Positions 40,994 to 58,764 of a stretch of DNA of 64,000 nt are shown here, in pieces. The DNA is from a virus (Duplodnaviria; Caudoviricetes), in the IMG/VR virus record IMGVR_UViG_3300042975_000096; one strand, given 5' to 3'. The notes beneath the pieces are model-generated. The model had not been told where the DNA came from. It searched no databases and saw only the letters and a program-made list of their open reading frames with translations. The number at the start of each line of letters is the position of its first letter. Position 1 is the first letter of the stretch. The position numbers and the translations under genes are program-made.

Positions 40994-41926
40994 TTACGAT
41001 TGTTCCGATACAGTATTTCTTTCCCAAAAAACACCATTAACGAACCCCTGAATTGAATCATCATTATTTGCCATATCTAATCTCTGTTCAGCCCACACAC
41101 AAAACTGTTCATCCATTTCAATGCCAATATAATTTCTCTTTAGTTTTTTTGCAACAACCGACGTTGTTCCACTACCCAAAAATGGGTCAAATACAACATC
41201 ATTCTCATTTGAAGATGCCAATATCATCTTAGCAATCAATTTCTCCGATTTTTGTGTTGGGTGTGCTGTGTTTTCTGCCATAGACCAAAATGGAATTGTA
41301 ATATCATCCCAAAAATTAGAAGGACATGTATCTCTGAAATTACCTTTCTTACCTTCTACCCAATCTTTAGGTATGCCATCTACTTTATATGGTGCAATTA
41401 CCTTTTTACGAATCTTAACCGCATCCAAATTAAAAGTGTATTCATCGCTTTTCGTACAAAACCAAACATCTTCTAATGAATTTTTCCAATTTGCTTTTGC
41501 TCCACGACCCTTTTCTCTTTGCCATGTAATTCTACTTCTTACATCAAAAAACTCTCTTAATACATTGCCAATAACTAAAGAGGATTTCCAATCACAACAA
41601 ACATAAATAGACCCATCATTTTTCAATAATGGATATACTGCTTCAATCCACTTTCTTGTATAATTTTTATAATCCTCATCATCTTCTTTATGAAAAGTCA
41701 TTTTATTGAATTTCTTTGTTAAATTATAAGGAGGGTCAACAATCATCAAATCAACACTATTATTTGGCAACTTTGAACAAACGTCAAAAGTATCGCCTAA
41801 AATTGTTTTATTCAATACATTATTCAAATCATTCTGATTTTTTTCAACAGAAATGGTTCTATCTAAGAATTTTTGTCCATCTTCTATTGAAGTTTTTATT
41901 GTTTTATTTCTTGAATCATCACTCAT
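40994..41926 (-). CDS. Orphan N4C/N6A DNA methyltransferase (beta class)
   Basis: DPPY motif IV precedes HPTQK and VFDPFLGSGTT motif I. Confidence 0.92.
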   Translation of the reverse strand: MSDDSRNKTIKTSIEDGQKFLDRTISVEKNQNDLNNVLNKTILGDTFDVCSKLPNNSVDLMIVDPPYNLTKKFNKMTFHKEDDEDYKNYTRKWIEAVYPLLKNDGSIYVCCDWKSSLVIGNVLREFFDVRSRITWQREKGRGAKANWKNSLEDVWFCTKSDEYTFNLDAVKIRKKVIAPYKVDGIPKDWVEGKKGNFRDTCPSNFWDDITIPFWSMAENTAHPTQKSEKLIAKMILASSNENDVVFDPFLGSGTTSVVAKKLKRNYIGIEMDEQFCVWAEQRLDMANNDDSIQGFVNGVFWERNTVSEQS

Positions 41927-42498: not shown

Positions 42499-42720
42499 TT
42501 ACATTACCTCAGAAGATGTATAACTAATGTTATATTCTCCCTTAGAATTGATTTTAACCGTTGCCTTTTTTCCTGCTCCATCATCAGCAGTCACCTTCTG
42601 CAAATTGTGCAAAATAAGGAAATTCATCATATCGCCTTTTGCAAACTGTTCCCATGTTGCATTAGACATAACCCCATTATCAATTTTTTGCTCACTGATT
42701 GACATGTTTTCTTCTGACAT
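42499..42720 (-). CDS. Small hypothetical protein
   Basis: ORF with GAGTG RBS, coupled to next gene. Confidence 0.6.
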   Translation of the reverse strand: MSEENMSISEQKIDNGVMSNATWEQFAKGDMMNFLILHNLQKVTADDGAGKKATVKINSKGEYNISYTSSEVM

Positions 42721-42801: not shown

Positions 42802-44610
42802 TTATTTTTTTACAACGCACCAACGCTGAAATAAATTATATTTTATTTCACTATCTTTCATTTTTGAAAAAACTATATCAAATAATTTTCTATCAAAATC
42901 AGAATACAACATAATATATTTATATCCAGCCCATATTGAATACGCTTTTTTATCATTCATTAAACTCAATAAAACTTCTTTATCATCTGTGCTTAACAAT
43001 TTAGTCATTTTAGAAGGAAAATTAAAAAAATCTTCGCTAGAAACCTTAATTAGCCCCAAATTTTTCTTTTCTTCTTGTGTTGATTCTTCATCTATTTTTT
43101 TAACAACATCCATCAACCTATTAACAAAAATAGGCTCTTTTATTTCCAAATTATTATCAATGATATATTTAACAACACTTTTTTGAAGAATGCCAGTTAG
43201 CTCATCATAATTATGCTGTTTTAATAACTCTCTGCATTTTGTTCCACTAATACTTTTAATTCCTTTTGTCATTTTTTTTCTAGGAATACATATAACATTT
43301 ATTCCTCTTTGATTAAATAAATATTTGGCTTGTGTTATATGTTGCCGTGTAATGTTATCATCTGTTTCAATACCACAAATAAAATGGTCAATATTCATCT
43401 TGTTAAATCCTTGCCTAACGACATCCAATAATTTATAGGTATTCAATCCAACAAAATTTTTACTATGTCTTAACATTAAATCATTATATTCAGGCCAAAA
43501 AGTTTGATAAGAAAACATCTCTGGCATATCAACAACAATTACATTTTCCAAATCATTAACACCAATTCTAACAAGGTTTGAACAATCCTCTTTATCAAAA
43601 ATTAAATTCATTCCTTCTTGCATAAGAAATACAACAAAAACATCGAACATTCTTGCCCCTGTTTCAACTAAATATCTATGTCCAACTGTAAATGGATTAC
43701 AACTCATAACCGAAGCACCAATTGTTGTTGTAGAGTCAACGACAATATTTTTCTTCTTTAATTCGTTTTTATATTCACTTATTAAAGAGTTTACATTATA
43801 ATCAACCACTGAAAATGACCGCTCAAATAAATAATGTAATTTATCGAAAATAATCTTTGCAATATTTTTATGACAATATGCCGTATAATGCGCAGCATCG
43901 ACAAAATTTTCTTTTTCATGTTTTCTTAAAAAATAATCTTTTGTTTTTATTACAGGAAACAAATCAATTAATTCTCCTAAAATACACGGCGCACATCCAA
44001 TAATTACAATATCTCCTTCTTTTATTGAAAAATTAATAATTCTATTATACATATTTATTAATGTTTCATTGTTTGTCGCGCAATTATATATTGAATAATT
44101 TTTTAAATTAAAGTTTCTCAAATAAGATGATATTGTTTCATTATCATTTACATAATATCCAAACATTGTAGAATTTCCAAAAAACAAAACGTTATTTCGC
44201 TTATCTATTTCGCCCTCTTTTCTAACCCCTTCACAAACATTTATTGAATTTGAACTATAATCATCAAAACAAAAATATTCATTATTTTGAACTAAAGATG
44301 GATTGGCTACAGAAATTTCTTTTACATATGAATCATCATAATCAATAAAACAATTTTTATAAATATCTTTATTTTTGTTTACGATATCATAAAAATATTT
44401 TTTTCTAAACTTATCAAAAAATACCTCATATTCTAAATTTTTTTTATCATATGTTTTATAAACAGTATCCGTACATATTTTTTCAACATAATTTTCAAAT
44501 TCATTTTTTCTTTCTAAGTCCTTAACCAATGGTATTTCCAACAAATACATATTTGCACCACGATGAACAACAAAATCATATATATCACTTATTATTTGCA
44601 AATTTTCCAT
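42802..44610 (-). CDS. SGNH/GDSL-like domain fused to CitC (citrate lyase ligase)-like HxGH nucleotidyltransferase domain
   Basis: FFGNSTMFG (block I variant) and FVDAAHYT (DxxH); GASVMSCNPFTVGHRYLVE and ISGTKCRELL resemble CitC MNANPFTLGHRYLVE / ISAS.VR. Confidence 0.7.
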   Translation of the reverse strand: MENLQIISDIYDFVVHRGANMYLLEIPLVKDLERKNEFENYVEKICTDTVYKTYDKKNLEYEVFFDKFRKKYFYDIVNKNKDIYKNCFIDYDDSYVKEISVANPSLVQNNEYFCFDDYSSNSINVCEGVRKEGEIDKRNNVLFFGNSTMFGYYVNDNETISSYLRNFNLKNYSIYNCATNNETLINMYNRIINFSIKEGDIVIIGCAPCILGELIDLFPVIKTKDYFLRKHEKENFVDAAHYTAYCHKNIAKIIFDKLHYLFERSFSVVDYNVNSLISEYKNELKKKNIVVDSTTTIGASVMSCNPFTVGHRYLVETGARMFDVFVVFLMQEGMNLIFDKEDCSNLVRIGVNDLENVIVVDMPEMFSYQTFWPEYNDLMLRHSKNFVGLNTYKLLDVVRQGFNKMNIDHFICGIETDDNITRQHITQAKYLFNQRGINVICIPRKKMTKGIKSISGTKCRELLKQHNYDELTGILQKSVVKYIIDNNLEIKEPIFVNRLMDVVKKIDEESTQEEKKNLGLIKVSSEDFFNFPSKMTKLLSTDDKEVLLSLMNDKKAYSIWAGYKYIMLYSDFDRKLFDIVFSKMKDSEIKYNLFQRWCVVKK

Positions 44611-44619
44611 ATTAACCCC

Positions 44620-45900
44620 TCAATCAAAATGCTTCAAAATAGTATTTATAATGTTTCTCTTTTTAACGTCTTTCCATAAAACAGAATCCATATCAACATT
44701 AAAATCATTTTTATTTGTGCTAAAATCATTTTTTACATTAATTATTTTTTCTAATCTATATTTTCCCCAAATATTATGTGTGGTTATTGAAACATTTTTT
44801 AATGCATTGGAATTTACATTTATTGCAAAAGAATTTCCATAATAATATAAATTTCCAGGATTTAAAACACTGTTGTTTAATTTCGACATTAATTTTTTAC
44901 AATCCGCTTCATTTTCTTCTATAACGACCCAATCTTTATAATTGTTTAGATTTATAGTATCATCTGCTTGTATTTTATCAAAATTTTTAGGAAACAATAT
45001 TTTATTGTCATTGCTCATACTTACTTCTGCAACTTTCTTTAATTGTAATTCTTTTTGTTCATCCCATAATTGGTTGTTTTTTTCATAATCTTCTTTTGTA
45101 ATTATCTTATAATCACCATTTTTTATTTTTTTACTATTCGGTAATTTATTTTTAATACTTTCAGTAATATAATCAAACTTTTGATTATCATCCAACATTG
45201 GCAATCCCAATCTAGCACCACAAATTTTACACCAGTGTTTTTGGTCAGAATAATCTACTCGCTTCCACCAATCAGGTTTTACATCCCAACCACCTGGACC
45301 ATCAAACAACAAGTCTAATGCTCCTGCCATCTCACAAAAAAATGCACCTTTTGGCGTTATCGAAGCTCCACAATTATTTTGAATCCAACACCTATTTTCT
45401 CTTTTTTCAAATTCTTCATCTGATATCCCTAAATCTTTATAATTAACCAATACTGAAAAATGTTTTGTTTTATTTTTATGGTCATTACATCGCAATGATG
45501 AAAACGTATCACAAATCAATTCCATATTGTCATAAAAATTATTTGTTTCAGCAGTTGTATATAATCGCAATTTTCCATGATTATAAGGCATATAATCCAT
45601 AGCATATTTATTTACATCACAAACAGGTTCAGTAAACATTTTATTTGTTGCCGTTCCGAATTTATCATGTAAATATTGAACCATTTTTGCAAAATCAGGA
45701 TGTAACAATGGTTCTCCACCAATTATTCCAATTTGTCCATTCCAACCATCTAGCGAATCAATTGCATTTTTAAAAAACTCAAAATCCATAAAGTATGGGT
45801 TTTGATAATGTCCACAAAATCTCATACAATTTGAACAAGAATTAATACACTTATTCGTAATATCTATTAATATCGTTGGTTTATCAGCTATCTTCTTCAA
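44620..45900 (-). CDS. Radical SAM protein
   Basis: CINSCSNC (CxxxCxxC), GGEPLLHP, further Cys CWIQ..FFCE..CKIC. Confidence 0.9.
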   Translation of the reverse strand: MKKIADKPTILIDITNKCINSCSNCMRFCGHYQNPYFMDFEFFKNAIDSLDGWNGQIGIIGGEPLLHPDFAKMVQYLHDKFGTATNKMFTEPVCDVNKYAMDYMPYNHGKLRLYTTAETNNFYDNMELICDTFSSLRCNDHKNKTKHFSVLVNYKDLGISDEEFEKRENRCWIQNNCGASITPKGAFFCEMAGALDLLFDGPGGWDVKPDWWKRVDYSDQKHWCKICGARLGLPMLDDNQKFDYITESIKNKLPNSKKIKNGDYKIITKEDYEKNNQLWDEQKELQLKKVAEVSMSNDNKILFPKNFDKIQADDTINLNNYKDWVVIEENEADCKKLMSKLNNSVLNPGNLYYYGNSFAINVNSNALKNVSITTHNIWGKYRLEKIINVKNDFSTNKNDFNVDMDSVLWKDVKKRNIINTILKHFD

Positions 45901-46732
45901 GTTCCCACTCCTTTCTATCTTTACAACTTATACCCCAATCAACAATTGTTTTTTTGTTGCAATATTTACAAAAATTAATACTTTTCCTATTATTCATTTT
46001 TATTATTTCATCAATGCTATCTATCTCAAAAATATTAATAAAATCATCATTTTTTTTAACAGCATAATTTTCATTAAAAAAAGAATTGAACTTATCAATA
46101 TTAGCAGGAATAATACAAGAATAAAAATCACCATTCATATTTAATTGACAGCAAGGCATTACATTAAAAAACTCATACATGTTTTCGTCAACATTTTCTT
46201 TTATTTTGTTCAAATCACTATTTCTATTATTACAAATAATATCATTATCATTTGTTTTTCCCAAATTAACCCTATAAAAATGTTTACCTTCATAATAATT
46301 TGTAACCGATAATTCTACATTATAGGTTTTAAGCTCATCATAAAAATCATTTGACTTTTCAATTGTCCCGTTTGTTATCAATTTCACCACAATATCTGGA
46401 AAAATTTCTCTCGTTTTTCTCACATAACTCATTACATCAGGATGCAACAATGGTTCTCCACCCATCAAACTGATACCATAAAACGGTTTGTTTTTTAGTA
46501 TTTGTTTTAACCTTCGCAACAACCTGGTAAAATCTTCTATATTAGCAAACCACTCATCCGCTAATGGAGCAAAATGGTCACATCCCTTACAGTTCAAATT
46601 ACAATGATTTGTAATATGAATATCAACAGTTCCTAATCCATTTTTAACATAATTAAGTTCTTCAATATATTCTTGTATGTTTTTTTTATTGTTTTCTTTT
46701 AGTAATTTTATCAAACCATCAACCCATTTCAC
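45884..46732 (-). CDS. Radical SAM protein (paralog of 48559..49323)
   Basis: HITNHCNLNCKGCDHF, MGGEPLLHP, TNG, C-terminal FCKYC. Confidence 0.92.
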   Translation of the reverse strand: MKWVDGLIKLLKENNKKNIQEYIEELNYVKNGLGTVDIHITNHCNLNCKGCDHFAPLADEWFANIEDFTRLLRRLKQILKNKPFYGISLMGGEPLLHPDVMSYVRKTREIFPDIVVKLITNGTIEKSNDFYDELKTYNVELSVTNYYEGKHFYRVNLGKTNDNDIICNNRNSDLNKIKENVDENMYEFFNVMPCCQLNMNGDFYSCIIPANIDKFNSFFNENYAVKKNDDFINIFEIDSIDEIIKMNNRKSINFCKYCNKKTIVDWGISCKDRKEWELEEDS

Positions 46733-47580
46733 CTTAATAACTTCAACACCAAATCATCTTTGTGAAAACATAATTTATTAATCACATCTTGTTTTGTGAA
46801 TTTTATTTCTTGCGTGACATTATCATCAAAATCAAACAACCTCAAATATTCTGTCAAGCCATCATCTTGTGATTTATTTTCCGAAGAATAATAAACCTTT
46901 TTATTCATATAAACAAACTCAAAAATTAACTTGCCAATATTTTCAGAATATATTGAATCAACAACGTTTCTCCATCGTTGATATTTTAATGTATTTTTCA
47001 ACATACTATTAAACTTTATTTCATCTGTATCTTCCGCATTTCTCTCTAGCTCATCAAACACACCATTTTTTTTATCCAACGAATCCAAATAATTTAATCT
47101 TTCTAATGAAAACTTATGATAATACACATAGTAATTGTTAGTATAAAATTTTTCATTACATGGATTTCCTAAAATTTTTATATTTGGTATATTTTGCACA
47201 TACTTGTTTTTTTTATTGTTATTCATTATGTAATCATAAAACATTAACCCAGAATCAAGCATAATTAAATTATCATACCTAAAATCAAACGTAGATAGAT
47301 ACTTCATGATGGCAAATGAAACAATTAAATTCTCTGATTTATGATTATTTATCCATTCATTTAATTTTCCAATATTACAAAATTCATAATTCATTCCTGC
47401 TATTGGTATTGATTTATTTATCGTATTAATATATTTCATATTGTTTTTCATATCTGCACAATCAACAAATATATAACATTTTATATTGCAACCATATTTT
47501 TTTAAATTAAAATACATATCAAATAACGAAGTCGTTATCCCGTTCATTTGTGGATAATAAAAGACTATATCAACATTCAT
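46729..47580 (-). CDS. Unknown protein, paralog of 50917..51789 (possibly divergent glycosyltransferase-like)
   Basis: Shared motifs NG..TS..D...NL, KFS.ER, ENIGK..FEF, DGLTE(F/Y)L. Confidence 0.6.
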   Translation of the reverse strand: MNVDIVFYYPQMNGITTSLFDMYFNLKKYGCNIKCYIFVDCADMKNNMKYINTINKSIPIAGMNYEFCNIGKLNEWINNHKSENLIVSFAIMKYLSTFDFRYDNLIMLDSGLMFYDYIMNNNKKNKYVQNIPNIKILGNPCNEKFYTNNYYVYYHKFSLERLNYLDSLDKKNGVFDELERNAEDTDEIKFNSMLKNTLKYQRWRNVVDSIYSENIGKLIFEFVYMNKKVYYSSENKSQDDGLTEYLRLFDFDDNVTQEIKFTKQDVINKLCFHKDDLVLKLLR

Positions 47581-47587
47581 TGTTTAA

Positions 47588-48571
47588 TTACCTCGATTTC
47601 AATATATTCTTCAGCGACTCTATACTTTTTGTAGCGAATGCAACATTACCATGTATTTCGCAATAAGGCTCTTTTTTTAATTGCTTAAATAAATCATTTA
47701 CTGATTCTCTATAAAAATCATTTATAATTATAATGTAATCATAACTATCATGAAATTTTTTCAACAATTCCATCTTTGAATAACGTTGTTTACATATATC
47801 AAAATCAATAAAATCTATAATATCAAAATAGCCATTGCTAATTTCCTCACTGTTCTCATAAACAACTAAGCAATGTCCTTTATATAATTGTTTGAATTCA
47901 TTATATAATTTTTTCATATATATTAATGAGTTAACTTGATTCATTACTCTTTTTAAATTTTTTCTTACATAGAAATAAGCGATTGGCTCATTACAAAAAG
48001 AATAATGTTTGCAATTTGACACATACCTAAATATTATTTCATCGTCAGCCATACGCAAATAAGAACAATCCCACTCACCATATTTTTCAAAACAGTTTCT
48101 ACTATGCGCAAAAGAGCACGTATCAACCTGATTAGAAACAAATATATTCGTTTTTGAACAATCAAGCCCTTTTAACTCTTTATTTCCTTCATCATCAACT
48201 ATAAAATATTTTGTAGTAACAACTTCTGTATTATCATTGATAACCTTTAATAAATTTTCACAGCATTTTTTATCTGTCTCATCATCATCATCAGGATATA
48301 AAATCCAATCCCCAGTAGAATGAATAACCCCATAATTTCTTGCATAACAATGACCTTTGTTTTCTTTCAATCGAAACATTTTTATATTATCCATACCTAG
48401 CGCATCAATAAATTGCTTCTTTTTTTTATATTCTTCAATCAATGAACAATCATCAACAATAATTAATTCCCAATTAGCATATGTTTGATTGACAACAGCC
48501 AAAACTGCTTTAGGAAAATAACAACTTCTATTATATGTTGGCATAATGAATGAGAATTTTATTCCATCCAT
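47588..48571 (-). CDS. Glycosyltransferase family 2
   Basis: FSFIMPTYNR, QTYANWELIIVDDCS, ARNYG, YPDDDD. Confidence 0.92.
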   Translation of the reverse strand: MDGIKFSFIMPTYNRSCYFPKAVLAVVNQTYANWELIIVDDCSLIEEYKKKKQFIDALGMDNIKMFRLKENKGHCYARNYGVIHSTGDWILYPDDDDETDKKCCENLLKVINDNTEVVTTKYFIVDDEGNKELKGLDCSKTNIFVSNQVDTCSFAHSRNCFEKYGEWDCSYLRMADDEIIFRYVSNCKHYSFCNEPIAYFYVRKNLKRVMNQVNSLIYMKKLYNEFKQLYKGHCLVVYENSEEISNGYFDIIDFIDFDICKQRYSKMELLKKFHDSYDYIIIINDFYRESVNDLFKQLKKEPYCEIHGNVAFATKSIESLKNILKSR

Positions 48572-49323
48572 TCTTCTTTACTCCTTTTTGATTGTTCCCA
48601 TTCTATGTCTTCAATAGGTTTTCTACAATACTTACAAAAATCATTTTTATTACGATAAAACTTATCAATAACCTCATCTGTCACATTATCATCATAAATA
48701 TCTAGAATATCTTCTTTTTTAACCTGATATGTTTCATTAAAATACTTATTAAAAATATCAATATACGCCTGTATTGGACATAAATACAATTTGCCATCTT
48801 TCAATTGCATTGATTTCCAATGAATCATACAACAATCAAAATCTGTTTGTTTCGCTTCATGTGTTAAAATATGTTTTCTTAATATTTTTGTTTTTTCATA
48901 TTGATTAAAATTTTTTGTTCTAACCCCAACGCTATTCAATAGTGCAAATAACTTCTCATAATTAACATTAATTGGATACCTTGTCATTTCTACCAAAACA
49001 TCATACTCTATTAAACTGTTTATCATTTCTCCCATTCTCTGTTTTAACAAACTACCATTACTTAATACACTCATCTTTGTATTTGGCATAATTTCATGAA
49101 TTGCTTTAAAAAATTCACAAACATTCGGATGAAGTAATGGTTCACCACCAAACAATCTAATATTATCTACAATTATTTTCGTGCCTAATTGTTTCAAATC
49201 TTTTTTAAATTCCTCAACATCAGCAAACCACGGTTCAGATAATGGCGAAAAATGCGCACATCCTTTACAGTTCACATTACAATGATTTGTAATGTGATAT
49301 TCAATCATTCTTACATGTTTCAT
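48559..49323 (-). CDS. Radical SAM protein
   Basis: HITNHCNVNCKGCAHF, FGGEPLLHP, SNG, C-terminal FCKYC. Confidence 0.92.
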   Translation of the reverse strand: MKHVRMIEYHITNHCNVNCKGCAHFSPLSEPWFADVEEFKKDLKQLGTKIIVDNIRLFGGEPLLHPNVCEFFKAIHEIMPNTKMSVLSNGSLLKQRMGEMINSLIEYDVLVEMTRYPINVNYEKLFALLNSVGVRTKNFNQYEKTKILRKHILTHEAKQTDFDCCMIHWKSMQLKDGKLYLCPIQAYIDIFNKYFNETYQVKKEDILDIYDDNVTDEVIDKFYRNKNDFCKYCRKPIEDIEWEQSKRSKEEWME

Positions 49324-50912
49324 TTTATAATCATTCCTTTATCAAACACTAACCCATCCAGCTTTTCATTAAACATCCTAATCATATCTTTTGCATAATT
49401 GAAGATTGGCATACCACTATCATTAAATGAAGTATTTATTAATATTGGATTCCCCGTCTTTTTACCAAAATCAATTAATAAATCATGCAACCATTTATCC
49501 TCTTTAGCATCTACTGTTTGAATTCTAACTGTTCCGTCTAAATGTATTGCCCCATCAATAATATTTTCTTTTTTACAATACCCTAAAACATTCATATATG
49601 GGGCATCAACATTAATATCAAAATATTCTCCCATATACTCGCGAGGAATTAATATGCCATATGGTCTATACCATTCTCTATTTTTTATTTCGTTTAATTT
49701 ATCATGCATTTCTTTATGTAACGGTGAAGCCAATATACTTCTATGTCCTAACGCTCTCGGGCCCATTTCTATATTTCCCCTACATATACCAACAATACCA
49801 TCTTTTTCTAAAATTTCAATCAATTTATCATTATTAATATCAATCAAGTTATCCTTTATGTGCCTATAAAAATATGCTTTATCATAAATTTCAGAAGTAC
49901 AATAAAATTCATTAATATCTAAACTATTTAACTCATTTGGTTTGTTTTTTAATAAATAATTAAATATCGCTCCAACTGATTGACCTGTATCAGAAGCTAT
50001 TGGATTCCAATATATTTTTTTAAACCACATTGATTTAGCCAAATAATAATTCAACATGCAATTCAATGCGCATCCACCTGAAAAAACCAACGTATCACTA
50101 TATTCTTTATATTTATCAAAAACATTATTTAATACATCATCTATCCATATTTTTTGAAAAGTATATGCCAAATCATATTTATTATGCTTTAATTTCAATT
50201 GGTCAATATAATTATTAATATACTTTTCGATATTTTCTTTTTCAGCCCAATTATTCCAATTTATACTTTTTATTTTTTTCATAAAGTCGCGTATATCTCT
50301 AATTTCTATAAAGTTACTAGATATACCGGCATAAGCCATAAATTTACCTTCCATGCCATCATAATATTTAGTTTCTAAAAAATTACTTGATAATATCTCA
50401 TAAAACAATCCATAACTAAATCGTTGTTCTTGAAATATTTTTTTTAATTTATTGTTTTTATATAAAAACACCGCATGGTTTCCATCACCTTTACCATCTA
50501 TTGATACACATAATGCATTATCTAATTTATTTATTATTGCAGTTGGCAATACATGATTTTCTTGATGATGCATTTTTTTCATTTCACAATTCTCTAACAT
50601 TTTAACAAACTCAAATGATTCTTGTTTCAAATATCCATCTTCGAATTGAGTATAACACCACACAACTACGTCAAATCTATCCACATTAAACAAATCTTTA
50701 ATCATTTTTTGTGCTTTATAAATGTTTTTATGCATACAATCTTTATAAATTGAATCAACATAATTAGCATAATCAATCTTCTCTTGTGAATGAAACGAAA
50801 AATGTTTTTTCTTTAACAATTTATCCATTTCAATGTATCTTAGCTCTTTTGTTTCTGTATCATAATAGCATACATTATAGTCTTGATAGCATTGTATTCC
50901 TAAAATTTTCAT
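49320..50912 (-). CDS. O-carbamoyltransferase, CmcH/NodU/TobZ family
   Basis: HHQENH, DGKGD, EGKFMAYA, SGGCALN, EMGPRALGHRSILA, KNREWYRP, H.DGTVRIQTV, INTSFN. Confidence 0.93.
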   Translation of the reverse strand: MKILGIQCYQDYNVCYYDTETKELRYIEMDKLLKKKHFSFHSQEKIDYANYVDSIYKDCMHKNIYKAQKMIKDLFNVDRFDVVVWCYTQFEDGYLKQESFEFVKMLENCEMKKMHHQENHVLPTAIINKLDNALCVSIDGKGDGNHAVFLYKNNKLKKIFQEQRFSYGLFYEILSSNFLETKYYDGMEGKFMAYAGISSNFIEIRDIRDFMKKIKSINWNNWAEKENIEKYINNYIDQLKLKHNKYDLAYTFQKIWIDDVLNNVFDKYKEYSDTLVFSGGCALNCMLNYYLAKSMWFKKIYWNPIASDTGQSVGAIFNYLLKNKPNELNSLDINEFYCTSEIYDKAYFYRHIKDNLIDINNDKLIEILEKDGIVGICRGNIEMGPRALGHRSILASPLHKEMHDKLNEIKNREWYRPYGILIPREYMGEYFDINVDAPYMNVLGYCKKENIIDGAIHLDGTVRIQTVDAKEDKWLHDLLIDFGKKTGNPILINTSFNDSGMPIFNYAKDMIRMFNEKLDGLVFDKGMIIK

Positions 50913-50916
50913 ATAG

Positions 50917-51789
50917 TTACCCTTTCAATAATTTTAATATTTCATCATTATGTTTCATAAACAAAACCTCTTGTAATTTTGATTTTGATAATAAATTCAA
51001 ATCAAAATCAAAATTATCATCAATTCCAAATTGAAAAAGAAATTCTGTTAATCCATCATTGATTTTTTTATTCTTACAAGAATAACTGGCTTCTTTTTCT
51101 AATAGCAAAAATTCGAACATCATTTTTCCTATATTCTCATAATAATCAGCACCAAATTCTGTATATGGATTATCTTTTGATTTTTTGCTATATCTAAAAT
51201 AATCATATCTTTTATACGAAAACGGTTTAATATCTAATTTGTTCTTTTTTCTTTTAAAATATTCTTCAGATGTTAATATGCCATTTTCATTTGTGCTTAT
51301 TTGTTTCAATCTATTAATCCGCTCTTCTGAAAACTTCATATACCAAATAAAACTATTCTTTACAAATTGTGCATTAAACTCATTACAAATAGTAATAATG
51401 TCATTATCATTTATATACGAAATCATATTATTGAATTCATTTTGAGAAATCTCTTTCTTATATATAAATGCAGGATAAAATAAAAACACTTTATTAAAAT
51501 CAATCTCTATCGTTTTTGTTTGAACTAAATCAATTACCTCACTACTAATCACACAAGCATTTCCATGTAAATCGTAATGCATTTTACCATACTTCAATGG
51601 CAAATAAACAATATTTGATTCATTACCAAAATAGCGTTTGAATCTTTTAACTACTAATTTATCATCAAAGAATACAATTAATCTTATTTCCCAATTTGTA
51701 TATTTTCTTAAATTATAAAACAAATCTTCAAATGAAGTATATGCCCCATTTAATTCATATAAATAATAAATCAAATCTATTTTCATCAC
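50917..51789 (-). CDS. Unknown protein, paralog of 46729..47580
   Basis: Same shared motif set as 46729..47580. Confidence 0.6.
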   Translation of the reverse strand: MMKIDLIYYLYELNGAYTSFEDLFYNLRKYTNWEIRLIVFFDDKLVVKRFKRYFGNESNIVYLPLKYGKMHYDLHGNACVISSEVIDLVQTKTIEIDFNKVFLFYPAFIYKKEISQNEFNNMISYINDNDIITICNEFNAQFVKNSFIWYMKFSEERINRLKQISTNENGILTSEEYFKRKKNKLDIKPFSYKRYDYFRYSKKSKDNPYTEFGADYYENIGKMMFEFLLLEKEASYSCKNKKINDGLTEFLFQFGIDDNFDFDLNLLSKSKLQEVLFMKHNDEILKLLKG

Positions 51790-52925
51790 TAAACACTCTC
51801 AATACATTTATATATTTTCATCATTATATTCTCTATACTGTACTTTTTTGATTCCTTAATACAATTCTTTCTTATATTAACAATATCCTTACAGAAACTA
51901 TTGCGTATAGAAGCCGGTAAATCGTCTGTGACAAGCCATCCATTATATCCATCTATAACTATATCATTCATTGATTTACACTCCTTGTATCCAATCACAG
52001 GCGTTCCAAATGACATTGCTTCTAATGCTACAGTTGGCAAACCTTCTATTATTGATGGTATCACTAAAACATGTGCATTACGATAGAACGGTTCTACATT
52101 TTTTTGATATCCATGAAAATGAATATTGTCAAATTTGAAGTATTCAGATATATCCAAAAAACCATCATTGGCATAATTATACCCTACAACATCACACTCA
52201 TAATACGTATCTTTAATATAGTCTAATAATAACTGCGTTCGCTTTATATCCCTGTTTATTCTTCCAACATATAGAATGTTACTTCGTTTCTTATTGATTT
52301 CTATGTTGTCAGGTATTTCTATACAATTATAAAAAACGTATGATTTATCTTTATATTTTTCACTAACATATTGAGGTAATAAAAATCCTAGTCTATCACA
52401 AGATTCCAACATCATATCATAAAGTAACTCTTTATCTTTCAATGCTTTTTGAAAAAATAAATATTCTAGCCCTTGCATTTTACTAAATGTGTTTTTAATA
52501 TATTTTGGCTCATTATGAAAAAACATTATTATTGGAACATTTGTCATTTTAGATATAATTGACCAAAATATTACTTGCTGACCCCCACCTGCATTGCAAA
52601 ATATACAACGTGGTTTTATCTGAAAAACGGTTCGTGCAACTTTATTCATATATCCTCTAGAAAAATAAGTAATCATATCACTATGAACAATTATATTTTT
52701 CAAATTCAAAAAATTTCCTGGTTGCTGAAACAGATGAACTTCGTATTTTTTAGATAACGATTTGCAAATTTTTATGGTATATTTCTCCGCTCCCCATAAA
52801 TATTGTTCACCTTCATTTTTCATAATATTGCAAGTAATAATAATTTTATTTTCATCTCTATTTTGTACAAACCATTTTTTGTTTAATGTAAATTGAGCAT
52901 ATAATAAATCATTTTTTATATTCAC
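51789..52925 (-). CDS. Glycosyltransferase family 4 (GT-B)
   Basis: GAEK, ILYVGRI...K, PSIIEGLPTVALEAMSFGTPVI (E-x7-E). Confidence 0.92.
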   Translation of the reverse strand: MNIKNDLLYAQFTLNKKWFVQNRDENKIIITCNIMKNEGEQYLWGAEKYTIKICKSLSKKYEVHLFQQPGNFLNLKNIIVHSDMITYFSRGYMNKVARTVFQIKPRCIFCNAGGGQQVIFWSIISKMTNVPIIMFFHNEPKYIKNTFSKMQGLEYLFFQKALKDKELLYDMMLESCDRLGFLLPQYVSEKYKDKSYVFYNCIEIPDNIEINKKRSNILYVGRINRDIKRTQLLLDYIKDTYYECDVVGYNYANDGFLDISEYFKFDNIHFHGYQKNVEPFYRNAHVLVIPSIIEGLPTVALEAMSFGTPVIGYKECKSMNDIVIDGYNGWLVTDDLPASIRNSFCKDIVNIRKNCIKESKKYSIENIMMKIYKCIESV

Positions 52926-53736
52926 GACATGCCATCCTTAAAATATTTTTTTCCAACTTCTTATCCACCAATTTGTTTGCATACATTTCCCATATTTTAC
53001 CAAACAAATCAGCTTTCACCCATGGTTTTGGATTACTAGCATAATGAATTATCTTTATTTTTTCTGATTTTATTCTTTCTCCATAAATCCGAATATATTC
53101 ATTAAACTTCAAATGACCATAATTGTTTGCCAAAAAATTATATCCATAATCTATATATTTTATTTGACCATTAAATGCATCATTCATAATATCCTGTTCC
53201 CATAAATGATAATCTTTTGCTTCTGATTCTAACCTTATATAATAACTATACATTGTATCTTTTTTATTAATAACAGTATTCCTTATCTTTTTTAGATTCA
53301 ATAAAATATTTCCTGCATTAAAATAATTTAACCCGTTTATCTTATCTCTTACTCCTGCTACAAAACAATCCTCAATATCAATTTCAAAAATTTCTGAAAT
53401 ATCTTCTATTACAACTGTATCTGCATCAATATGAAAAACCTTGTCACAATCTAGTAATTCATGCAACAACAATTTATAATATACTACACCTGCATTATCT
53501 TCTCTGATAAAAATATTTTTATCAATATAAATTGGATGGATGCAAAAATCAATAGAGCTTAATTGACCTATTTCTCCTATATCATTAAACTCTATACATA
53601 ACAAATAAACATCGTAATTTACATCACGATGCTTATTTGTTTTCAATGAATACATTGAAACATATGTTTGATATAGATATGATTTATTTGTAATGTAACA
53701 AAGATTAAAACGTCTTTGCAAACTCATTATAAACAC
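52909..53736 (-). CDS. Glycosyltransferase family 8
   Basis: HIDADTVV, YFNAG, EQDIMN, IIHYASNPKPW. Confidence 0.9.
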   Translation of the reverse strand: MFIMSLQRRFNLCYITNKSYLYQTYVSMYSLKTNKHRDVNYDVYLLCIEFNDIGEIGQLSSIDFCIHPIYIDKNIFIREDNAGVVYYKLLLHELLDCDKVFHIDADTVVIEDISEIFEIDIEDCFVAGVRDKINGLNYFNAGNILLNLKKIRNTVINKKDTMYSYYIRLESEAKDYHLWEQDIMNDAFNGQIKYIDYGYNFLANNYGHLKFNEYIRIYGERIKSEKIKIIHYASNPKPWVKADLFGKIWEMYANKLVDKKLEKNILRMACREYKK

Positions 53737-54340
53737 TTCTCAATTCTTCTTCATCTACTGCACTATCAATTCTATCCTTGAAATCCTTAAATGCTTTATA
53801 TGCTTCATCAACGGCATTAAATTCGTCCAATGAATCTAGATATTCAGATAGCTTTTCCAAAACTTCCGTATCACCTGAATTGATTACTTTTAAATATTCT
53901 TCTTCGCGATTTTCATCTGTAATAAAATATCCTTTTGATTCCAAATAATGATTTAATTTGAAAAAATTAAATAATGCAAAATTTGAAATGGATAGTTTAT
54001 CACCAATAGAATCACCCATAATGCGAATGAAATGTGTTTTTTCTCGTTCTAGTTTATCTTGACTTGATAGCTTAACCGTTTCGACTTCTTTTATATCTTG
54101 CTCTTGTAAAATCGTTGGTTTTAAATTAACGTCATAATAAATAACACATTCAGGCTCACTTCTATGTAAATCTAATTTATTAAAAATTCTCAAATACGCT
54201 TGTGGAGAAACCTCAACATAATCCTCTTTATTCAATAAAATTGGTTCATTCTCTAATTTCAAAAATGGATTAACTAAAAAAGCTCTATCTTCTTTAACTA
54301 AAATACCACAATAGCATTTCATTTCTACATTATCACTCAT
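53705..54340 (-). CDS. Hypothetical protein, possibly tail-fibre assembly chaperone-like
   Basis: C-terminus KDRIDSAVDEEELRSV resembles the I..A...EEL end of phage fibre-chaperone families; lies two genes after the Cys-rich protein. Confidence 0.45.
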   Translation of the reverse strand: MSDNVEMKCYCGILVKEDRAFLVNPFLKLENEPILLNKEDYVEVSPQAYLRIFNKLDLHRSEPECVIYYDVNLKPTILQEQDIKEVETVKLSSQDKLEREKTHFIRIMGDSIGDKLSISNFALFNFFKLNHYLESKGYFITDENREEEYLKVINSGDTEVLEKLSEYLDSLDEFNAVDEAYKAFKDFKDRIDSAVDEEELRSVYNEFAKTF

Positions 54341-54581
54341 CTGTTTTCGTTCCTTCCTGCACTTGTTTCATAATATCATCAATATCTTTATTATTTTTAT
54401 CATTTTCTTCTGGAAATTCTAGTTCTATGTTTTGTTTTCTAGCCAAACTAACCAGCAACATATTAACAACATCCATAACCGTAGCATATGCCAATTTATC
54501 AATCGGATAAATATTTTCTCTAGCACTAATTACAAAATTTTCAATAGCTTTATCTACTGTTAATATTTTCTTATCGGACAT
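54333..54581 (-). CDS. Small hypothetical protein
   Basis: ORF with AAGGAAAG RBS; overlaps next gene. Confidence 0.6.
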   Translation of the reverse strand: MSDKKILTVDKAIENFVISARENIYPIDKLAYATVMDVVNMLLVSLARKQNIELEFPEENDKNNKDIDDIMKQVQEGTKTDE

Positions 54582-54598: not shown

Positions 54599-55366
54599 TT
54601 AATAAATGTATGCATAACACCATCCATATCTTCTAACTACATGGCAAGAACAAACTTCATCACCAAAACACGTACAATAATTACAATTACATACACATGT
54701 ATTGGATAATAAATTAGCAGCTCCAACTAAGAATCTATTGAAAAACTCAGCAAATGTTTTATCCCCAACTTCAACAGTCGCAACAAACAACGCAACCCAT
54801 TGGTCTAAATTATCCGTTTGCAATGCCATATTTCCCCACGGTTTATATTTAACAGTTCCATTTGGCGAACCTTCTTCAAACCCTGTTACTGAATCATCCG
54901 TAGAATTACCATGCGAAACACCTAGTACACAATATGTTGGATTACCTCCGTATGAAGCACTCTCCATGTGACTATAATCTGTTGCATTATTTATACGATT
55001 ATTATACAAATCCCATCTATAATCAGCTGGATGATTGTTTTTATCATATTGATACATATGCAATGTTGTTTTAAATGCACGTTTTATATCGTCAGCCGTT
55101 ACCATTACATCTGGGTCTCCACTTGTACCAATTTCAATATCATCAACGCCACCACGTAATGACCATTCTCTACGCAAAATACTCCATAGCTTTTGCATTC
55201 TTTCAAATGTTAATTTCGCTCCTTCTGCCACAACTTCCATTTGTGGATTTCTTGGGGCATCACTACCCGGATGAGAACCATAAGGTTTACAAATCGGAAA
55301 TCCTGCTGGTCTTTCAATTGTATTCCAACCGCCCTCAACATGCATTACATAAGGCCCTTGTGCCAT
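54599..55366 (-). CDS. Protein with Cys-rich C-terminus (CVCNCNYCTC..CSC..C); candidate radical SAM substrate / virion fibre protein
   Basis: 8 Cys in the last ~32 aa; two V..G.K-helix repeats; GGAG RBS; near two SPASM enzymes. Confidence 0.6.
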   Translation of the reverse strand: MAQGPYVMHVEGGWNTIERPAGFPICKPYGSHPGSDAPRNPQMEVVAEGAKLTFERMQKLWSILRREWSLRGGVDDIEIGTSGDPDVMVTADDIKRAFKTTLHMYQYDKNNHPADYRWDLYNNRINNATDYSHMESASYGGNPTYCVLGVSHGNSTDDSVTGFEEGSPNGTVKYKPWGNMALQTDNLDQWVALFVATVEVGDKTFAEFFNRFLVGAANLLSNTCVCNCNYCTCFGDEVCSCHVVRRYGWCYAYIY

Positions 55367-55436: not shown

Positions 55437-56639
55437 TCATTTTTTATCATGATTTTCCGTAATACGTTGATTAGCAATATTACAATAATGCAATTCTTTT
55501 TCAATTCCTATAAATTTTCTATCTAAAGTATCACATGCAACACCTGTAGTTCCACTTCCTGAAAACATATCCAAAACAATCTGACCTTCTCTTGTAATTA
55601 ATTTAACCAAATATTCCATTAGCTTTATTGGTTTAACTGTAATATGGTCATTATATTTACCTTTTTCAGATTTAGAAGCCTTTGCACAATAAAAAAATCT
55701 TGATGCTCCACCCTCATCACCATATGTTATTTGGATATCTCCTGCTTTTCCCAATCCACCATGTTCAAAAAACACGCCCTCTTTTGTTCGTTTACAGTTT
55801 GTTCCGCTTTTCAAATGACCACTTTGTTCATCTAATAATTCGGCAGACACTTCATCTAAAATAACATTTGACGGAAATCTCCCTTTTGGATTCGCACTAG
55901 CCATAACATTTTTCGTATTATCAAATCCACAACTCTTATCATTCATAACAACTGCATTTTTTCTACCATGTCTAGAAGTTGTTTTTAATGGTTCATTGTG
56001 CGAAATTCTACAATCATCAATGTTAATAGCACCCGTTCCATATTTCAAAACATTTTCACATACTGTTTTTTCTTCTATTGGTTTTCTCGCCACACAAATC
56101 AATTCTTGTGCAGGTTTTAATGCAGTATTCCATCCGTTCCACTTTTTAGCTTCTTCTGTTTCGAATTCTACATCTCTAACATATTCTTGACCATTATAAT
56201 CTTTTGGTCTATCATTATCTGCATGGATTTTATTATATCCCATAGAAGCCGTAGCCTTTTTTCCTTTAAGTTTCTTAAATGCTTGCGTATTGGCTGAACC
56301 ATTTTTTATTTTTGATTCAATTTGCTTTCCAACATCAGCCCCATGTGGCATACCACTACCATAAATCCATGACATCGTATCACGAATTTCAAATCCTGCA
56401 TCTTCAATAGCACAAACCATACGATGATATGTTCTTGTGGAATTAAATACAAGAATGTGACCACCCGGTTTCAATACACGGAATACCTGCTCCCACATTT
56501 CTACACTATTTACAATACCTGTTTTATCCCACCCTTTTGACATAAAACCAATATTATAAGGTGGGTCTGAAATAACAGCATCAACGCTATTACTTTTCAT
56601 TTTTTTCATTTCTTCAATGCAATCGCCATTTATAATCAT
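55437..56639 (-). CDS. Orphan N4C/N6A DNA methyltransferase (beta class, large insert)
   Basis: DPPY; GWNTALKPA; HITVKP; VLDMFSGSGTTG. Confidence 0.92.
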   Translation of the reverse strand: MIINGDCIEEMKKMKSNSVDAVISDPPYNIGFMSKGWDKTGIVNSVEMWEQVFRVLKPGGHILVFNSTRTYHRMVCAIEDAGFEIRDTMSWIYGSGMPHGADVGKQIESKIKNGSANTQAFKKLKGKKATASMGYNKIHADNDRPKDYNGQEYVRDVEFETEEAKKWNGWNTALKPAQELICVARKPIEEKTVCENVLKYGTGAINIDDCRISHNEPLKTTSRHGRKNAVVMNDKSCGFDNTKNVMASANPKGRFPSNVILDEVSAELLDEQSGHLKSGTNCKRTKEGVFFEHGGLGKAGDIQITYGDEGGASRFFYCAKASKSEKGKYNDHITVKPIKLMEYLVKLITREGQIVLDMFSGSGTTGVACDTLDRKFIGIEKELHYCNIANQRITENHDKK

Positions 56640-56644
56640 TTATC

Positions 56645-57715
56645 TTAATTCCTTCTCATCTTTTGATAGGCTTTAATATAATTGGAAATCTTTTTATACA
56701 TAGCGCACACACTATCATTATTCGATTTATTCCAATCTTCAACTTTACCATTGCTATTGATGGAATTACATCTAAAACAGAAAATTGAATCGCATTCCTG
56801 ACATTTACTGTTTTTTGCAAACATATTGTTTCTTACTAAATAATTATGTTCAATCTTATACAAACAATTATCGTCAAAAATATTTGTATAAAACATTTTA
56901 TCATCTGCATACAAACAACCATGGCAATACGTTACTCTACCATCTAAATCAACAATAAACGAATCGTCACCACCATGGCAATCAGCCCTATCTGCCGTAT
57001 CAAACCACACAAATCCAGTATATCCATGATTATCTTTTTTGTTGTCTATAAAATACTGAATCAACTTAATAAATTGATTGTTCATTTTATCAAAATCAAT
57101 TAGTCCATCACTTAATGTATCTGGTGTACATGCAAAAACAACTTTATGTTTTAACGTCTGATTGAATTTGTCATAATTGACATATTGCTGATAAATATTA
57201 TTCTCTAAATCATTTACAGTACATGTAGATTTAATTCCAAAATTAAATCCGTTATCATCAAAAAAATGAATTGCTTCTTTAACAACTTTATCCGTTTCCA
57301 TAACTGTTTTTCCTAACTGAACCCTTTGATTATTTTCTTCATTATGGAAATCATAAGAAACCTGAACCTGTAGACGTTTCCCAATCAAATTCTTTAGCTC
57401 TAGCAATTCTTTTTTGTATTTATTTACCAATGAACCATTCGTATACATAAAAAATTCAACATTATCATACATACTAAATTCTTTTACAATACGATAAATA
57501 TCTTTGAAATAAATGAGTGGTTCACCACCCCAAAACTCAACATGAACTAAATCATTGTTTTCTTGAAGAACATGGAGCAATTCAATTACCCTGTCAAACG
57601 TCTTTGGATATAATGACTCTTTGCTCTCTACCGCGCCATTCTTAACCTCAAAACAATATTTGCATCTAAAATTACACGCCTTACCCATATTGATGGATAT
57701 TCCAACTTTGTTCAA
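56645..57715 (-). CDS. Radical SAM protein with SPASM-like C-terminal domain
   Basis: CNFRCKYC, FWGGEPL, YTNG; DCHGG..TYCHGC..CQECDSIFCFRC..C. Confidence 0.9.
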   Translation of the reverse strand: MNKVGISINMGKACNFRCKYCFEVKNGAVESKESLYPKTFDRVIELLHVLQENNDLVHVEFWGGEPLIYFKDIYRIVKEFSMYDNVEFFMYTNGSLVNKYKKELLELKNLIGKRLQVQVSYDFHNEENNQRVQLGKTVMETDKVVKEAIHFFDDNGFNFGIKSTCTVNDLENNIYQQYVNYDKFNQTLKHKVVFACTPDTLSDGLIDFDKMNNQFIKLIQYFIDNKKDNHGYTGFVWFDTADRADCHGGDDSFIVDLDGRVTYCHGCLYADDKMFYTNIFDDNCLYKIEHNYLVRNNMFAKNSKCQECDSIFCFRCNSINSNGKVEDWNKSNNDSVCAMYKKISNYIKAYQKMRRN

Positions 57716-58764
57716 TTATTCCACCATCCTTTTTTTGTTATATCTATATTATATTCTTTGTTCATAAATAAATATAAACTAGATACCATATTATAAATTT
57801 CCTTTAATAATAAACAATATCCATCAACAATATCTCCGTTTTTATACTGCACATATAAACATCCTTGATTACAGAACTTATTTATTTTACATTGATTACA
57901 TTTATCATTTATCGTTATGTTATGTTCCGCTACAAATTTAATGTTATCATGATAATATTTATTCTCATTACTATCACACAATCTATAATAATCGTTTGTA
58001 TAAAATCTAGAACAAGGATATATAATTCCACTCGGAGTTAAACTAAATCCATTTTTACCTGCAAAACAAACAAAATTTCGTTTTCCTGAAACAATATTAT
58101 CTAATACTCTTTCTACAAACCCTATTCTTATCCATCTATGATAATTTTTATAATGAAAAATTAAGAACTCTTTCAATTTTAAAAGCTCTTTTTTTATCAC
58201 TATTAAATTGTTTTCATTCCAAACATCATCTTTTACAAAAGATATATCCATATATAAATCATCACAATCATTTTCCATCGCTAATTTATAAAAGTAATTT
58301 ACAACCTTCATAATGGATGGATTGTGATTGCTTATCATTGCTTTAGCTTGTACAGGAACAATATTGTTTTTTACCAATTGCTCGAAATTTGAATGATTAT
58401 TATCACATTCTCCATCACAACTAATACCTATATTAATATGATGAAGTTTTAAAATGTTTTTTATTTCTTCATTCAATAATAATGCATTCGTTTGCAAAAA
58501 ACTGAATTTTATATTATAATTGTTCTTCATCCACTCATCAAATAAAATAATTTTATTTATTTCTAATAGTGGCTCTCCACCAAAATAAGTAACATTATAC
58601 TCACCACTAAATTGTACATCAGTCATAACAGATAGATTTTCCACGCAATTCATTTGCTTTTTTAATGATTCAAATGTTAATACTTCTTCATCTTGGTTGA
58701 TATAACAATACTTACATTTCAAATTGCACTTATTTGTCATATGCAACTGTAATACATGTTCCAC
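57712..58764 (-). CDS. Radical SAM/SPASM protein
   Basis: CNLKCKYC, FGGEPL, QTN; CFAG..GIIYPC..CNQC-x5-C-x3-C..C. Confidence 0.93.
   Translation of the reverse strand: MEHVLQLHMTNKCNLKCKYCYINQDEEVLTFESLKKQMNCVENLSVMTDVQFSGEYNVTYFGGEPLLEINKIILFDEWMKNNYNIKFSFLQTNALLLNEEIKNILKLHHINIGISCDGECDNNHSNFEQLVKNNIVPVQAKAMISNHNPSIMKVVNYFYKLAMENDCDDLYMDISFVKDDVWNENNLIVIKKELLKLKEFLIFHYKNYHRWIRIGFVERVLDNIVSGKRNFVCFAGKNGFSLTPSGIIYPCSRFYTNDYYRLCDSNENKYYHDNIKFVAEHNITINDKCNQCKINKFCNQGCLYVQYKNGDIVDGYCLLLKEIYNMVSSLYLFMNKEYNIDITKKGWWNN

Follow-up and report, generated by a model that had tools for sequence, protein, structure and literature searches.

A probable soluble glycan-building and tailoring operon with radical SAM enzymes among the virion structural genes of a tailed phage

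Soluble glycosyltransferases that build glycans directly on proteins are known from bacteria as well as from phages. For the O-glycosylation of Gram-positive adhesins, soluble enzymes of the families GT4, GT8, and GT2 act stepwise on Ser-rich tracts within the cytoplasm (GtfA/B, GlyE, and GalT1; SdgA/SdgB). To our knowledge, tailoring by radical S-adenosylmethionine (rSAM) enzymes, carbamoylation, or acylation is unreported for these serine-rich repeat (SRR) and SD-repeat adhesin systems. In mycobacteriophages, the C-terminal ends of capsid and tail-tube subunits are reported to carry glycans (Freeman et al. 2023, as summarized in PMC12619734), and the soluble phage glycosyltransferases responsible lie among the structural genes. 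Here, we describe a ten-gene operon at positions 42802-53736, minus strand, of a 64,000-nucleotide (nt) stretch of the virus record IMGVR_UViG_3300042975_000096 (Duplodnaviria; Caudoviricetes)—the whole stretch being called the window in the following. This is very probably a soluble glycan-building and tailoring operon. As for its role, we prefer the reading that virion proteins are glycosylated directly in the cytoplasm, with a tailored glycan that varies between strains, and we judge the balance for and against it to be even.

The phage system resembles the two described ones in its mode of action, not in membership. Its glycosyltransferases lie in and beside the virion structural genes: the operon sits between capsid-proximal genes and the downstream genes for the tail sheath (30607-32745), tube-like proteins, and three tape-measure proteins. 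This position is kept in related loci that extend past the operon. Eight such loci from IMG/VR and the JGI/ENA metagenomes were compared, and all statements on gene order refer to those covering the position in question. As a further likeness to the mycobacteriophages, the phage bears a structural protein with a Ser/Ala/Thr-rich C-terminal tail. In contrast to the mycobacteriophage systems, however, five glycosyltransferases are joined here by a carbamoyltransferase, three rSAM enzymes, and a putative adenylating didomain protein; the set is paired with SPASM-type rSAM enzymes and a Cys-rich protein, its distal half appears swapped between strains, and it is known from its genes alone. Regarding the adhesin systems, GT8, GT4, and GT2 have 5gvv (a glycosyltransferase entry for pneumococcal PsrP), SdgB, and 5hea, respectively, among their best relatives of solved structure, whereas the scores stay far below the equivalog cut-offs (49 versus 800 bits for SdgA). 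Neither a GtfB-like partner nor an accessory Sec system (SecA2/Y2) was found, and the Ser-rich material amounts to one short Ser/Ala/Thr tail on a single structural protein. The rSAM-, carbamoyl-, and adenylate-dependent tailoring and the strain-variable cassette appear to be what is new here.

All ten open reading frames (ORFs) of a first-pass annotation, which had been made from the sequence without database searches, lie where it placed them and are co-directional (Table 1). Pfam bears out its GT8, GT4, NodU/CmcH-type carbamoyltransferase, GT2, and Citrate_ly_lig assignments as well as Radical_SAM for the 254- and 282-amino acid (aa) proteins. The two proteins it had left as unknowns, X and X′, turn out to be predicted GT-B-fold glycosyltransferases by model fold match and E-x7-E motif, and the operon thus has five glycosyltransferases. 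The genes are as closely packed as described, with junctions of −32, −17, −1, +4, −4, −13, +7, −4, −17, and +9 nt. Their AT-richness is also apparent in a GC profile, with 26.0% GC for the operon versus 33.8% for the tail and tape-measure genes and 30.9% for the whole window. No credible minus-strand terminator is present from 58764 to 42802, a range that includes the terminator-free stretch between the Cys-rich gene and 42802 noted before. A palindromic, terminator-like hairpin (58796-58823) closes the preceding gene for an 891-aa protein and precedes the unit; it is followed by a TATAAT-like element and an AAGGAG ribosome site. Both the Cys-rich gene and the first rSAM gene are directly preceded by TATAAT −10-like elements, in DNA that is AT-rich. 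Hence, one transcript for the operon and the Cys-rich gene is plausible only, as judged from such motifs. Downstream of the operon, a hairpin with a T-run is located near 42105-42072, after a coiled-coil gene. The 305-nt gap on the 3′ side of the operon is mostly occupied by a 73-aa ORF (42500-42719, minus strand), which has a −10-like element of its own and was too short for the threshold of the ORF list.

Table 1. Coordinates of the operon genes in order of transcription, followed by neighboring and other genes discussed in the text
Feature	Length (aa)	Coordinates	Strand	Remarks
GT8-family retaining GT-A glycosyltransferase	275	52909-53736	minus	Pfam Glyco_transf_8, 77 bits; DAD at 104-106
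GT4-family retaining GT-B glycosyltransferase	378	51789-52925	minus	Pfam Glycos_transf_1, 79.6 bits; E-x7-E at 294-302
X, predicted compact GT-B-fold glycosyltransferase	290	50917-51789	minus	AlphaFold2 model, predicted local distance difference test (pLDDT) 86.5
NodU/CmcH/TobZ-type O-carbamoyltransferase	530	49320-50912	minus	Pfam, PHROG, and PDB matches
Twitch-type rSAM enzyme, SpeY/BtrN-like	254	48559-49323	minus	first gene of the variable cassette; CX3CX2C at 15-22
GT2-family inverting GT-A glycosyltransferase	327	47588-48571	minus	Pfam Glycos_transf_2, 98 bits; DDD at 94-96
X′, second predicted compact GT-B glycosyltransferase	283	46729-47580	minus	paralogue of X; variable gene
Second twitch-type rSAM enzyme	282	45884-46732	minus	Pfam Radical_SAM, 44 bits; CX3CX2C at 44-51
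Third rSAM enzyme, unclassified	426	44620-45900	minus	variable gene; CX3CX2C (C18/C22/C25) with TTG start at 45900
Didomain protein	602	42802-44610	minus	Ser/Asn/Asp-His N-terminal alpha/beta domain, CitC/PPAT-like domain, and C-terminal 120 aa; variable gene
Two conserved small genes (p82, p211)	82 and 211	53705-54581	minus	between the Cys-rich gene and GT8
Cys-rich-tailed protein	255	54599-55366	minus	candidate acceptor or partner
N6/N4 DNA methyltransferase	 	55437-56639	minus	Pfam N6_N4_Mtase; lineage-specific insertion
Two overlapping rSAM/SPASM-type genes	350 and 356	56645-58764	minus	Pfam Radical_SAM, Fer4_12; phrog_1802
Virion structural protein	575	7431-9158	minus	Ser/Ala/Thr-rich C-terminal tail SSASAASASAASASASTSASTSTSSSTNTT...; just downstream of the third tape-measure gene

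All five glycosyltransferases look catalytically intact, with a DxD-type motif kept in GT8 and GT2 and E-x7-E in GT4, X, and X′. The best PDB sequence matches of GT8 are LgtC and 5gvv, and its homologues in the related loci are 60-86% identical. GT4 finds WlaC/PglH and SdgB as its best PDB matches, with SdgA among its weak NCBIfam matches. For GT2, the PDB matches are heparosan synthase, GalT1 (5hea), 5tze, and 6h1j—the last two of which we take to be TarS and TarP. A SunS-like S-glycosyltransferase reading of GT2 was dropped, as NCBIfam gave no such match. For each of GT8, GT4, and GT2, the best relatives of solved structure include a protein O-glycosyltransferase from Gram-positive bacteria, namely 5gvv, SdgB, and GalT1.

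X and X′ have no sequence-profile membership in the Pfam glycosyltransferase families, and their class is set by fold and motif. X finds no match in Pfam, NCBIfam, or PHROG, and for its AlphaFold2 model Foldseek returned nothing at E ≤ 0.001. In an exhaustive VIA-align search, however, the top 50 structures were all GT-B glycosyltransferases or UDP-GlcNAc 2-epimerases, with 6eji (Z 13.8), BshA (13.6), PimA (12.9), and the T4 alpha-glucosyltransferase (12.1) among the neighbors, as well as TarM. The motif E218-x7-E226 is invariant in the X orthologues. X′ shares 26-29% identity with X and the X orthologues (E 1e-15 to 2e-27), and the motif ENIGKxxFE is common to both. On the basis of the X model, the paralogy, and the motif, both are predicted to be GT-B glycosyltransferases of a GT4-like E-x7-E type. 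Homologues of X form only 15 clusters among 5.8 billion proteins, and as far as these sequences go, the family is seen only in this phage clade.

The carbamoyltransferase carries both domains of its class, with Carbam_trans_C at 164 bits (cut-off 27) and Carbam_trans_N at 50 bits (cut-off 24). It has hence the same Kae1-like/YrdC-like two-domain architecture as TobZ, NodU, CmcH, NovN, and GdmN, and GdmN, NovN, and TobZ are found in the PDB at E of about 1e-25 to 1e-29. The NodU equivalog threshold is missed (117 versus 1000 bits). Among phages, it matches phrog_1601 at 300 bits, a "Nol-like carbamoyltransferase" family common in cyanomyophages, whereas it is at most 29% identical to any cultured-phage homologue. 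We know of no experimental test of the function of this phage family.

The last protein of the operon had been described as a fusion of an SGNH and a CitC domain. Its CitC-like part stands, with Citrate_ly_lig at 84.7 bits (cut-off 20.9) over residues 297-483; NPFTxGH and GTxxR are invariant, and the alignment profile matches phosphopantetheine adenylyltransferases (PPAT). CitC itself shares this nucleotidyltransferase domain and differs in the remainder: the CitC equivalog is ruled out (TIGR00124 at 79 versus 262 bits, with only model positions 116-332 matched), citrate lyase genes are absent from the window, and—since no Pfam or PDB profile falls on the N-terminal 290 residues—no acetyltransferase-like N-terminal domain of the CitC type is detectable. 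In the N-terminal half, S147, N176, and D238-x-x-H241 are invariant in nine homologues. The family profile found no PDB match for this half and Pfam no match at all up to E = 5, and its SGNH identity is thus a suggestion at the level of motifs. About ten full-length homologues are found, none of them annotated and all but one from metagenome sources.

The first-pass annotation had counted five rSAM genes within about 14 kb, and the CX3CX2C motif is indeed present in five of five. The 254-aa enzyme shows the hallmarks of the twitch type, namely CX3CX2C together with four cysteines for an auxiliary Fe-S cluster: C15/C19/C22 and C165, C182, C230, and C233 are invariant in 51 family members. The auxiliary cluster of BtrN presumably involves four cysteines at nearly the same positions. 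An AlphaFold2 model (pLDDT 93.7) finds SpeY (7wzv) as the top Foldseek match (E 2.8e-16, template-modeling score 0.81), followed by BtrN. The 282-aa paralogue is about 31% identical to the 254-aa enzyme, aligns with its family, and has the same top PDB match. SpeY (spectinomycin) and BtrN (butirosin, 4m7t) both oxidize a secondary alcohol of a sugar or cyclitol. The phage twitch enzymes share with them the small size (about 250-320 aa) and the arrangement of CX3CX2C and a four-Cys auxiliary cluster, but they are only 22-23% identical and belong to a separate family, whose members are often fused to glycosyltransferases. This family comprises 4,859 representative clusters at E ≤ 0.001, and at the stricter E ≤ 1e-30 it still comprises 393; no curated NCBIfam model scores above its cut-off for it, and no assayed member was found in the literature. 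Literature searches on twitch rSAM enzymes with glycosyltransferases, on phage rSAM enzymes with carbamoyltransferases, and on SpeY gave nothing relevant.

The fusions themselves were counted among 35 relatives, which were long members picked for their length: 10 of 35 carry a GT2 domain, three a GT8, one a GT56, and one DUF6716, a putative glycosyltransferase. Among the relatives with a named source are proteins of two Clostridia, Harryflintia acetispora and Lacrimispora. In H. acetispora, the GT2-rSAM fusion is followed by genes for a UDP-sugar dehydrogenase, GT4, GT2, and a DegT aminotransferase. In cyanophage S-SCSM2R, a distant homologue (ORF306, L006:9001-9801) lies amid five annotated glycosyltransferases. 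These fusions and the Harryflintia locus support, at the level of gene content, a link of the twitch rSAM family to glycans that is independent of the phage operon. The H. acetispora locus (NZ_SLUK01000009.1) adjoins an integrase, a Mob_Pre relaxase, and a gene for a GTPase of the translation-factor family with EF-G/EF-Tu domains, which suggests that this glycan locus resides on a mobile element. The neighborhood of ORF306 also contains 2-oxoglutarate/Fe(II) oxygenases, an aminotransferase fragment, and an amidinotransferase.

The same enzymes allow for a quite different product, as the nearest characterized relatives—SpeY, BtrN, and BlsE for the rSAM enzymes and TobZ, GdmN, and NovN for the carbamoyltransferase—all take part in antibiotic biosynthesis. 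The operon would then be a compact natural-product cluster, whose aminoglycoside- or nucleoside-like glycoside has the host or competitors as its target. The authors of the S-SCSM2R study likewise name the homologous rSAM gene an antibiotic synthesis gene (PMC12801897); given its surroundings, this gene may really serve glycan tailoring. Within the operon, no scaffold-forming enzyme (cyclitol synthase, polyketide, or nucleoside core), exporter, or resistance gene was seen with Pfam and NCBIfam, and the rSAM family is fused to GT2 and GT8 and found in polysaccharide-type loci of bacteria. A small molecule would also leave the placement in the virion module and the conserved pairing with the Cys-rich gene unexplained. 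We consider this explanation improbable.

The third rSAM enzyme (426 aa) scores 24.4 bits in Pfam, below the cut-off, and its nearest Atlas clusters are viral rSAM families. Its public gene call starts at Met26 and thereby loses C18/C22/C25; the TTG start at 45900 overlaps the upstream gene by 17 nt. The two SPASM-type enzymes carry C-terminal Cys clusters and stand at the head of the conserved block, outside the ten genes; their position is conserved in every related locus.

For the acceptor, the question of a lipid carrier is central. The operon was said to contain no membrane protein, and the highest 19-residue hydropathy in the ten proteins is indeed only 1.93, hence no membrane segment is present. 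Pfam, NCBIfam, and PHROG revealed no initiating phosphoglycosyl-transferase, flippase/transporter, or polymerase family among the ten genes. A lipid-carrier polysaccharide pathway of the Wzx/Wzy or ABC type was ruled out for these two reasons. Soluble enzymes may nevertheless serve the host envelope: TarM, TarS, and TarP are soluble enzymes that attach sugars to lipid-linked teichoic acid within the cytoplasm, and the gene for TarP resides on a prophage. By analogy, the operon might decorate a lipid-linked precursor of wall teichoic acid, a secondary cell-wall polymer, or an S-layer glycan at the cytoplasmic face, to block superinfection, change a receptor, or aid release. The matches of GT2 to 5tze and 6h1j (presumably TarS and TarP) and the presence of TarM among the structural neighbors of X fit this, as do the strain-variable cassettes, which are typical of surface-polymer loci. 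Yet the operon lies inside the virion structural module, apparently co-transcribed with a conserved, non-enzymatic gene of higher GC content; no membrane-associated or polyprenol-recognizing component was found in it; and relatives bear sugar-nucleotide genes beside a capsid gene. Envelope remodeling would also be an odd function for the late virion block of a lytic jumbo phage—late timing and lytic lifestyle being assumed here. This explanation is therefore unlikely.

Comparison of the related loci separates a constant from a variable part. The shared order is the 891-aa protein, two rSAM enzymes, the Cys-rich protein, an ~85-aa and an ~211-aa protein, GT8, GT4, X, the carbamoyltransferase, and two twitch rSAM enzymes. 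GT2 is present in every locus reaching past the twitch rSAM genes, with a varying place. The presence of X′, the 426-aa rSAM enzyme, the 602-aa protein, and some inserted genes varies between loci: X′ is present in the window and L005 and absent from L001, L004, L010, L011, and L012; the 426-aa enzyme has orthologues in L005, L010, and L012 and is absent from L001, L004, and L011; the 602-aa protein is absent from L004 and L011. In comparison with the sister strain L001, DNA identity is 86% down to 48610 and 92.6% below 42934, whereas the stretch 42934-48610 in between is 66-70% identical or unalignable. At the protein level, identities are 43-54% inside this stretch, where the genes are also reordered, versus 86-100% outside. 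A divergent, reordered stretch between conserved flanks marks a swapped tailoring cassette; the distal half of the operon would hence be exchanged between sister strains like a serotype cassette.

Diversifying selection is equally expected for a DNA-modification cassette, and the glycan could in principle be placed on a modified genome base for restriction evasion. Some phages have glycosyltransferases that place a variety of glycans on DNA (Pyle et al. 2024, as cited in PMC12619734), the T4 alpha-glucosyltransferase is a structural neighbor of X (Z 12.1), and the operon is flanked here by two genes for DNA methylases, the second N6/N4 methylase at 40994-41926. Methylases are, however, absent from these positions in L004, L005, L010, L011, and L013, and in L012, a displaced one lies between the two SPASM rSAM genes. 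Thus, they are mobile insertions and not operon partners, and a tie of the operon to DNA modification by way of the methylases was rejected. Methylase genes seem to enter this late block repeatedly. The first-pass annotation had proposed a search for hydroxymethylase, thymidylate-synthase, and TET homologues. For the thymidylate-synthase family (PF00303, Thymidylat_synt), which includes the dCMP/dUMP hydroxymethylases, the search found no match in the 98%-complete related genome G001 and two partial relatives, with control genomes positive; for TET/JBP (PF12851), the positive control stayed silent, and this result carries no weight. Moreover, the operon lies in the structural module and not with replication or nucleotide-metabolism genes. 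Hence, the DNA alternative is weakened, and we regard it as improbable.

This leads back to glycosylation of virion proteins. Of the cytoplasmic pathway decorating virion proteins that had been proposed for this operon, the enzymology is strengthened—by five glycosyltransferases, a carbamoyltransferase, and SpeY/BtrN-like rSAM enzymes—while the protein target is favored only circumstantially, by the operon position, the synteny with the Cys-rich gene, the sugar-nucleotide genes near a capsid gene, and a Ser/Ala/Thr-rich tail. Genes for nucleotide-sugar synthesis are absent from the operon, as had been noted; relatives, however, have such genes in the capsid region, at a distance of about 20-30 kb. 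In G001, a gene for a UDP-sugar dehydrogenase lies two genes from a weak Phage_capsid match (22.3 bits, cut-off 24.2), which we take as the capsid gene on this sequence match, with a DegT aminotransferase just upstream.

Two candidate acceptors can be named. The 575-aa protein reaches an S+T content of up to 67% per 30-residue window, the highest value in the whole stretch, and weakly matches phrog_1011, "virion structural protein". Its orthologue in the sister strain is 90% identical and bears a different Thr-rich tail; the orthologue in G002, a relative of L004, has an S/T-rich stretch with further sequence after it. The tail looks like a glycosylation or linker tract under diversification, and the protein is hence a possible glycan acceptor. 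The Cys-rich protein has conserved ends, with FPICKPYG at the N terminus and CxCNCNxCxCxGxE..CxCxVV..GWCYxY at the C terminus. Its gene has the highest GC content of the block (37%, 0.372), versus 23-28% for the enzyme genes. Its middle part varies among relatives, with total lengths of 255 to 525 aa, while both ends are kept.

Gene content, folds, motifs, and gene order, along with the limits of the cassette and the fusions of rSAM enzymes to glycosyltransferases, are observed; from these, we infer the reactions, their order, the acceptor, and the biological role as follows. Between its head and tail modules, this jumbo myophage would carry a conserved late block spanning about 16 kb, with the ten genes as the enzyme-coding half. 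Given ten soluble proteins and no recognizable initiating transferase, flippase, or polymerase, the chain is expected to be built directly on a soluble cytoplasmic acceptor. The most likely acceptors would be co-produced virion proteins, that is, the Cys-rich-tailed protein and structural proteins that end in Ser/Thr-rich tracts, the 575-aa protein being an example. GT8, GT4, X, GT2, and X′ would add sugars singly from nucleotide sugars, and the TobZ/NodU-type enzyme would O-carbamoylate a sugar hydroxyl at the expense of carbamoyl phosphate and ATP. The twitch rSAM enzymes would take a hydrogen from a sugar carbinol carbon—giving a keto sugar or an epimer—on a sugar that is already glycosidically linked. 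The third rSAM enzyme might take part via an unspecified reaction. In the 602-aa protein, the CitC/PPAT-like domain would make the acyl-adenylate of a carboxylate, and the Ser/Asn/Asp-His domain would pass the acyl group on to the glycan. Hereby, GT8, GT4, X, and the carbamoyltransferase might make a conserved inner glycan, whose outer decoration is altered from strain to strain by the distal recombining cassette.

Several points weigh against this reading. LgtC, PglH, 5tze, and 6h1j—the last two presumably TarS and TarP—are equally good matches of the glycosyltransferases, and the substrates of these families also include lipid-linked glycans, teichoic acids, and small molecules; a DNA enzyme, the T4 alpha-glucosyltransferase, neighbors X structurally at Z 12.1. 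All related loci belong to one collinear phage clade, hence conserved synteny is weak evidence of functional coupling, and neither the Cys-rich family nor X is known from outside it. The hydroxymethylase search covered relatives, and the absence of the thymidylate-synthase family is thus known for relatives. The late timing is deduced from gene position and −10-like motifs only, the proposed acyl transfer by the 602-aa protein goes back to four invariant residues with no profile match, and the system is known here from its genes alone.

No cultured phage was found to carry the cluster. A nucleotide search with the operon gave no match in 50,697 phage records; against cultured phages, tblastn found no match for X, the Cys-rich protein, or the 891-aa protein and one weak match for GT8, hence no cultured model phage is available. 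Searches for the Cys-rich motif or X apart from each other in IMG/VR and the JGI metagenomes returned only the same clade, and no paper describing the cluster was found. Of the two small genes between the Cys-rich gene and GT8, which have no Pfam match, p211 matches phrog_25260, and both are present in every related locus. Further sugar- and nucleoside-related genes were seen in the relatives. G002 carries four tandem DegT/DnrJ/EryC1 aminotransferase genes (G002:C1:28970-33811), an unusual amplification for an enzyme of amino-sugar synthesis. In G001 (281 kb), a 409-aa protein with a nucleoside 2-deoxyribosyltransferase-like domain (L018:1443-3789) is encoded beside another rSAM gene, a few kb from the capsid genes.

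If virion proteins are the target, the system would be far more elaborate than the simple glycosyltransferase sets of mycobacteriophages, and this in a jumbo phage. The tailoring and the strain-variable cassette would then imply selection on the surface chemistry of the phage—for adsorption, stability, or escape from recognition. A bolder and rather doubtful possibility is that the whole block forms one machine for a new virion surface glycoprotein, which combines a cross-linked Cys-rich tail in the style of ribosomally synthesized and post-translationally modified peptides with an rSAM-oxidized or epimerized, carbamoylated, and acylated glycan, whose outer cassette sets a "phage serotype". 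Regardless of the target, the operon picks out a large unnamed rSAM family structurally near SpeY and BtrN, whose members in bacteria and phages are joined to glycosyltransferases by fusion or by gene clustering. If the proposed tailoring is true, these glycosyltransferase-associated twitch rSAM enzymes—at least 393 representative clusters, many of them from Bacillota—would be a new class of post-glycosylation sugar-tailoring enzymes.

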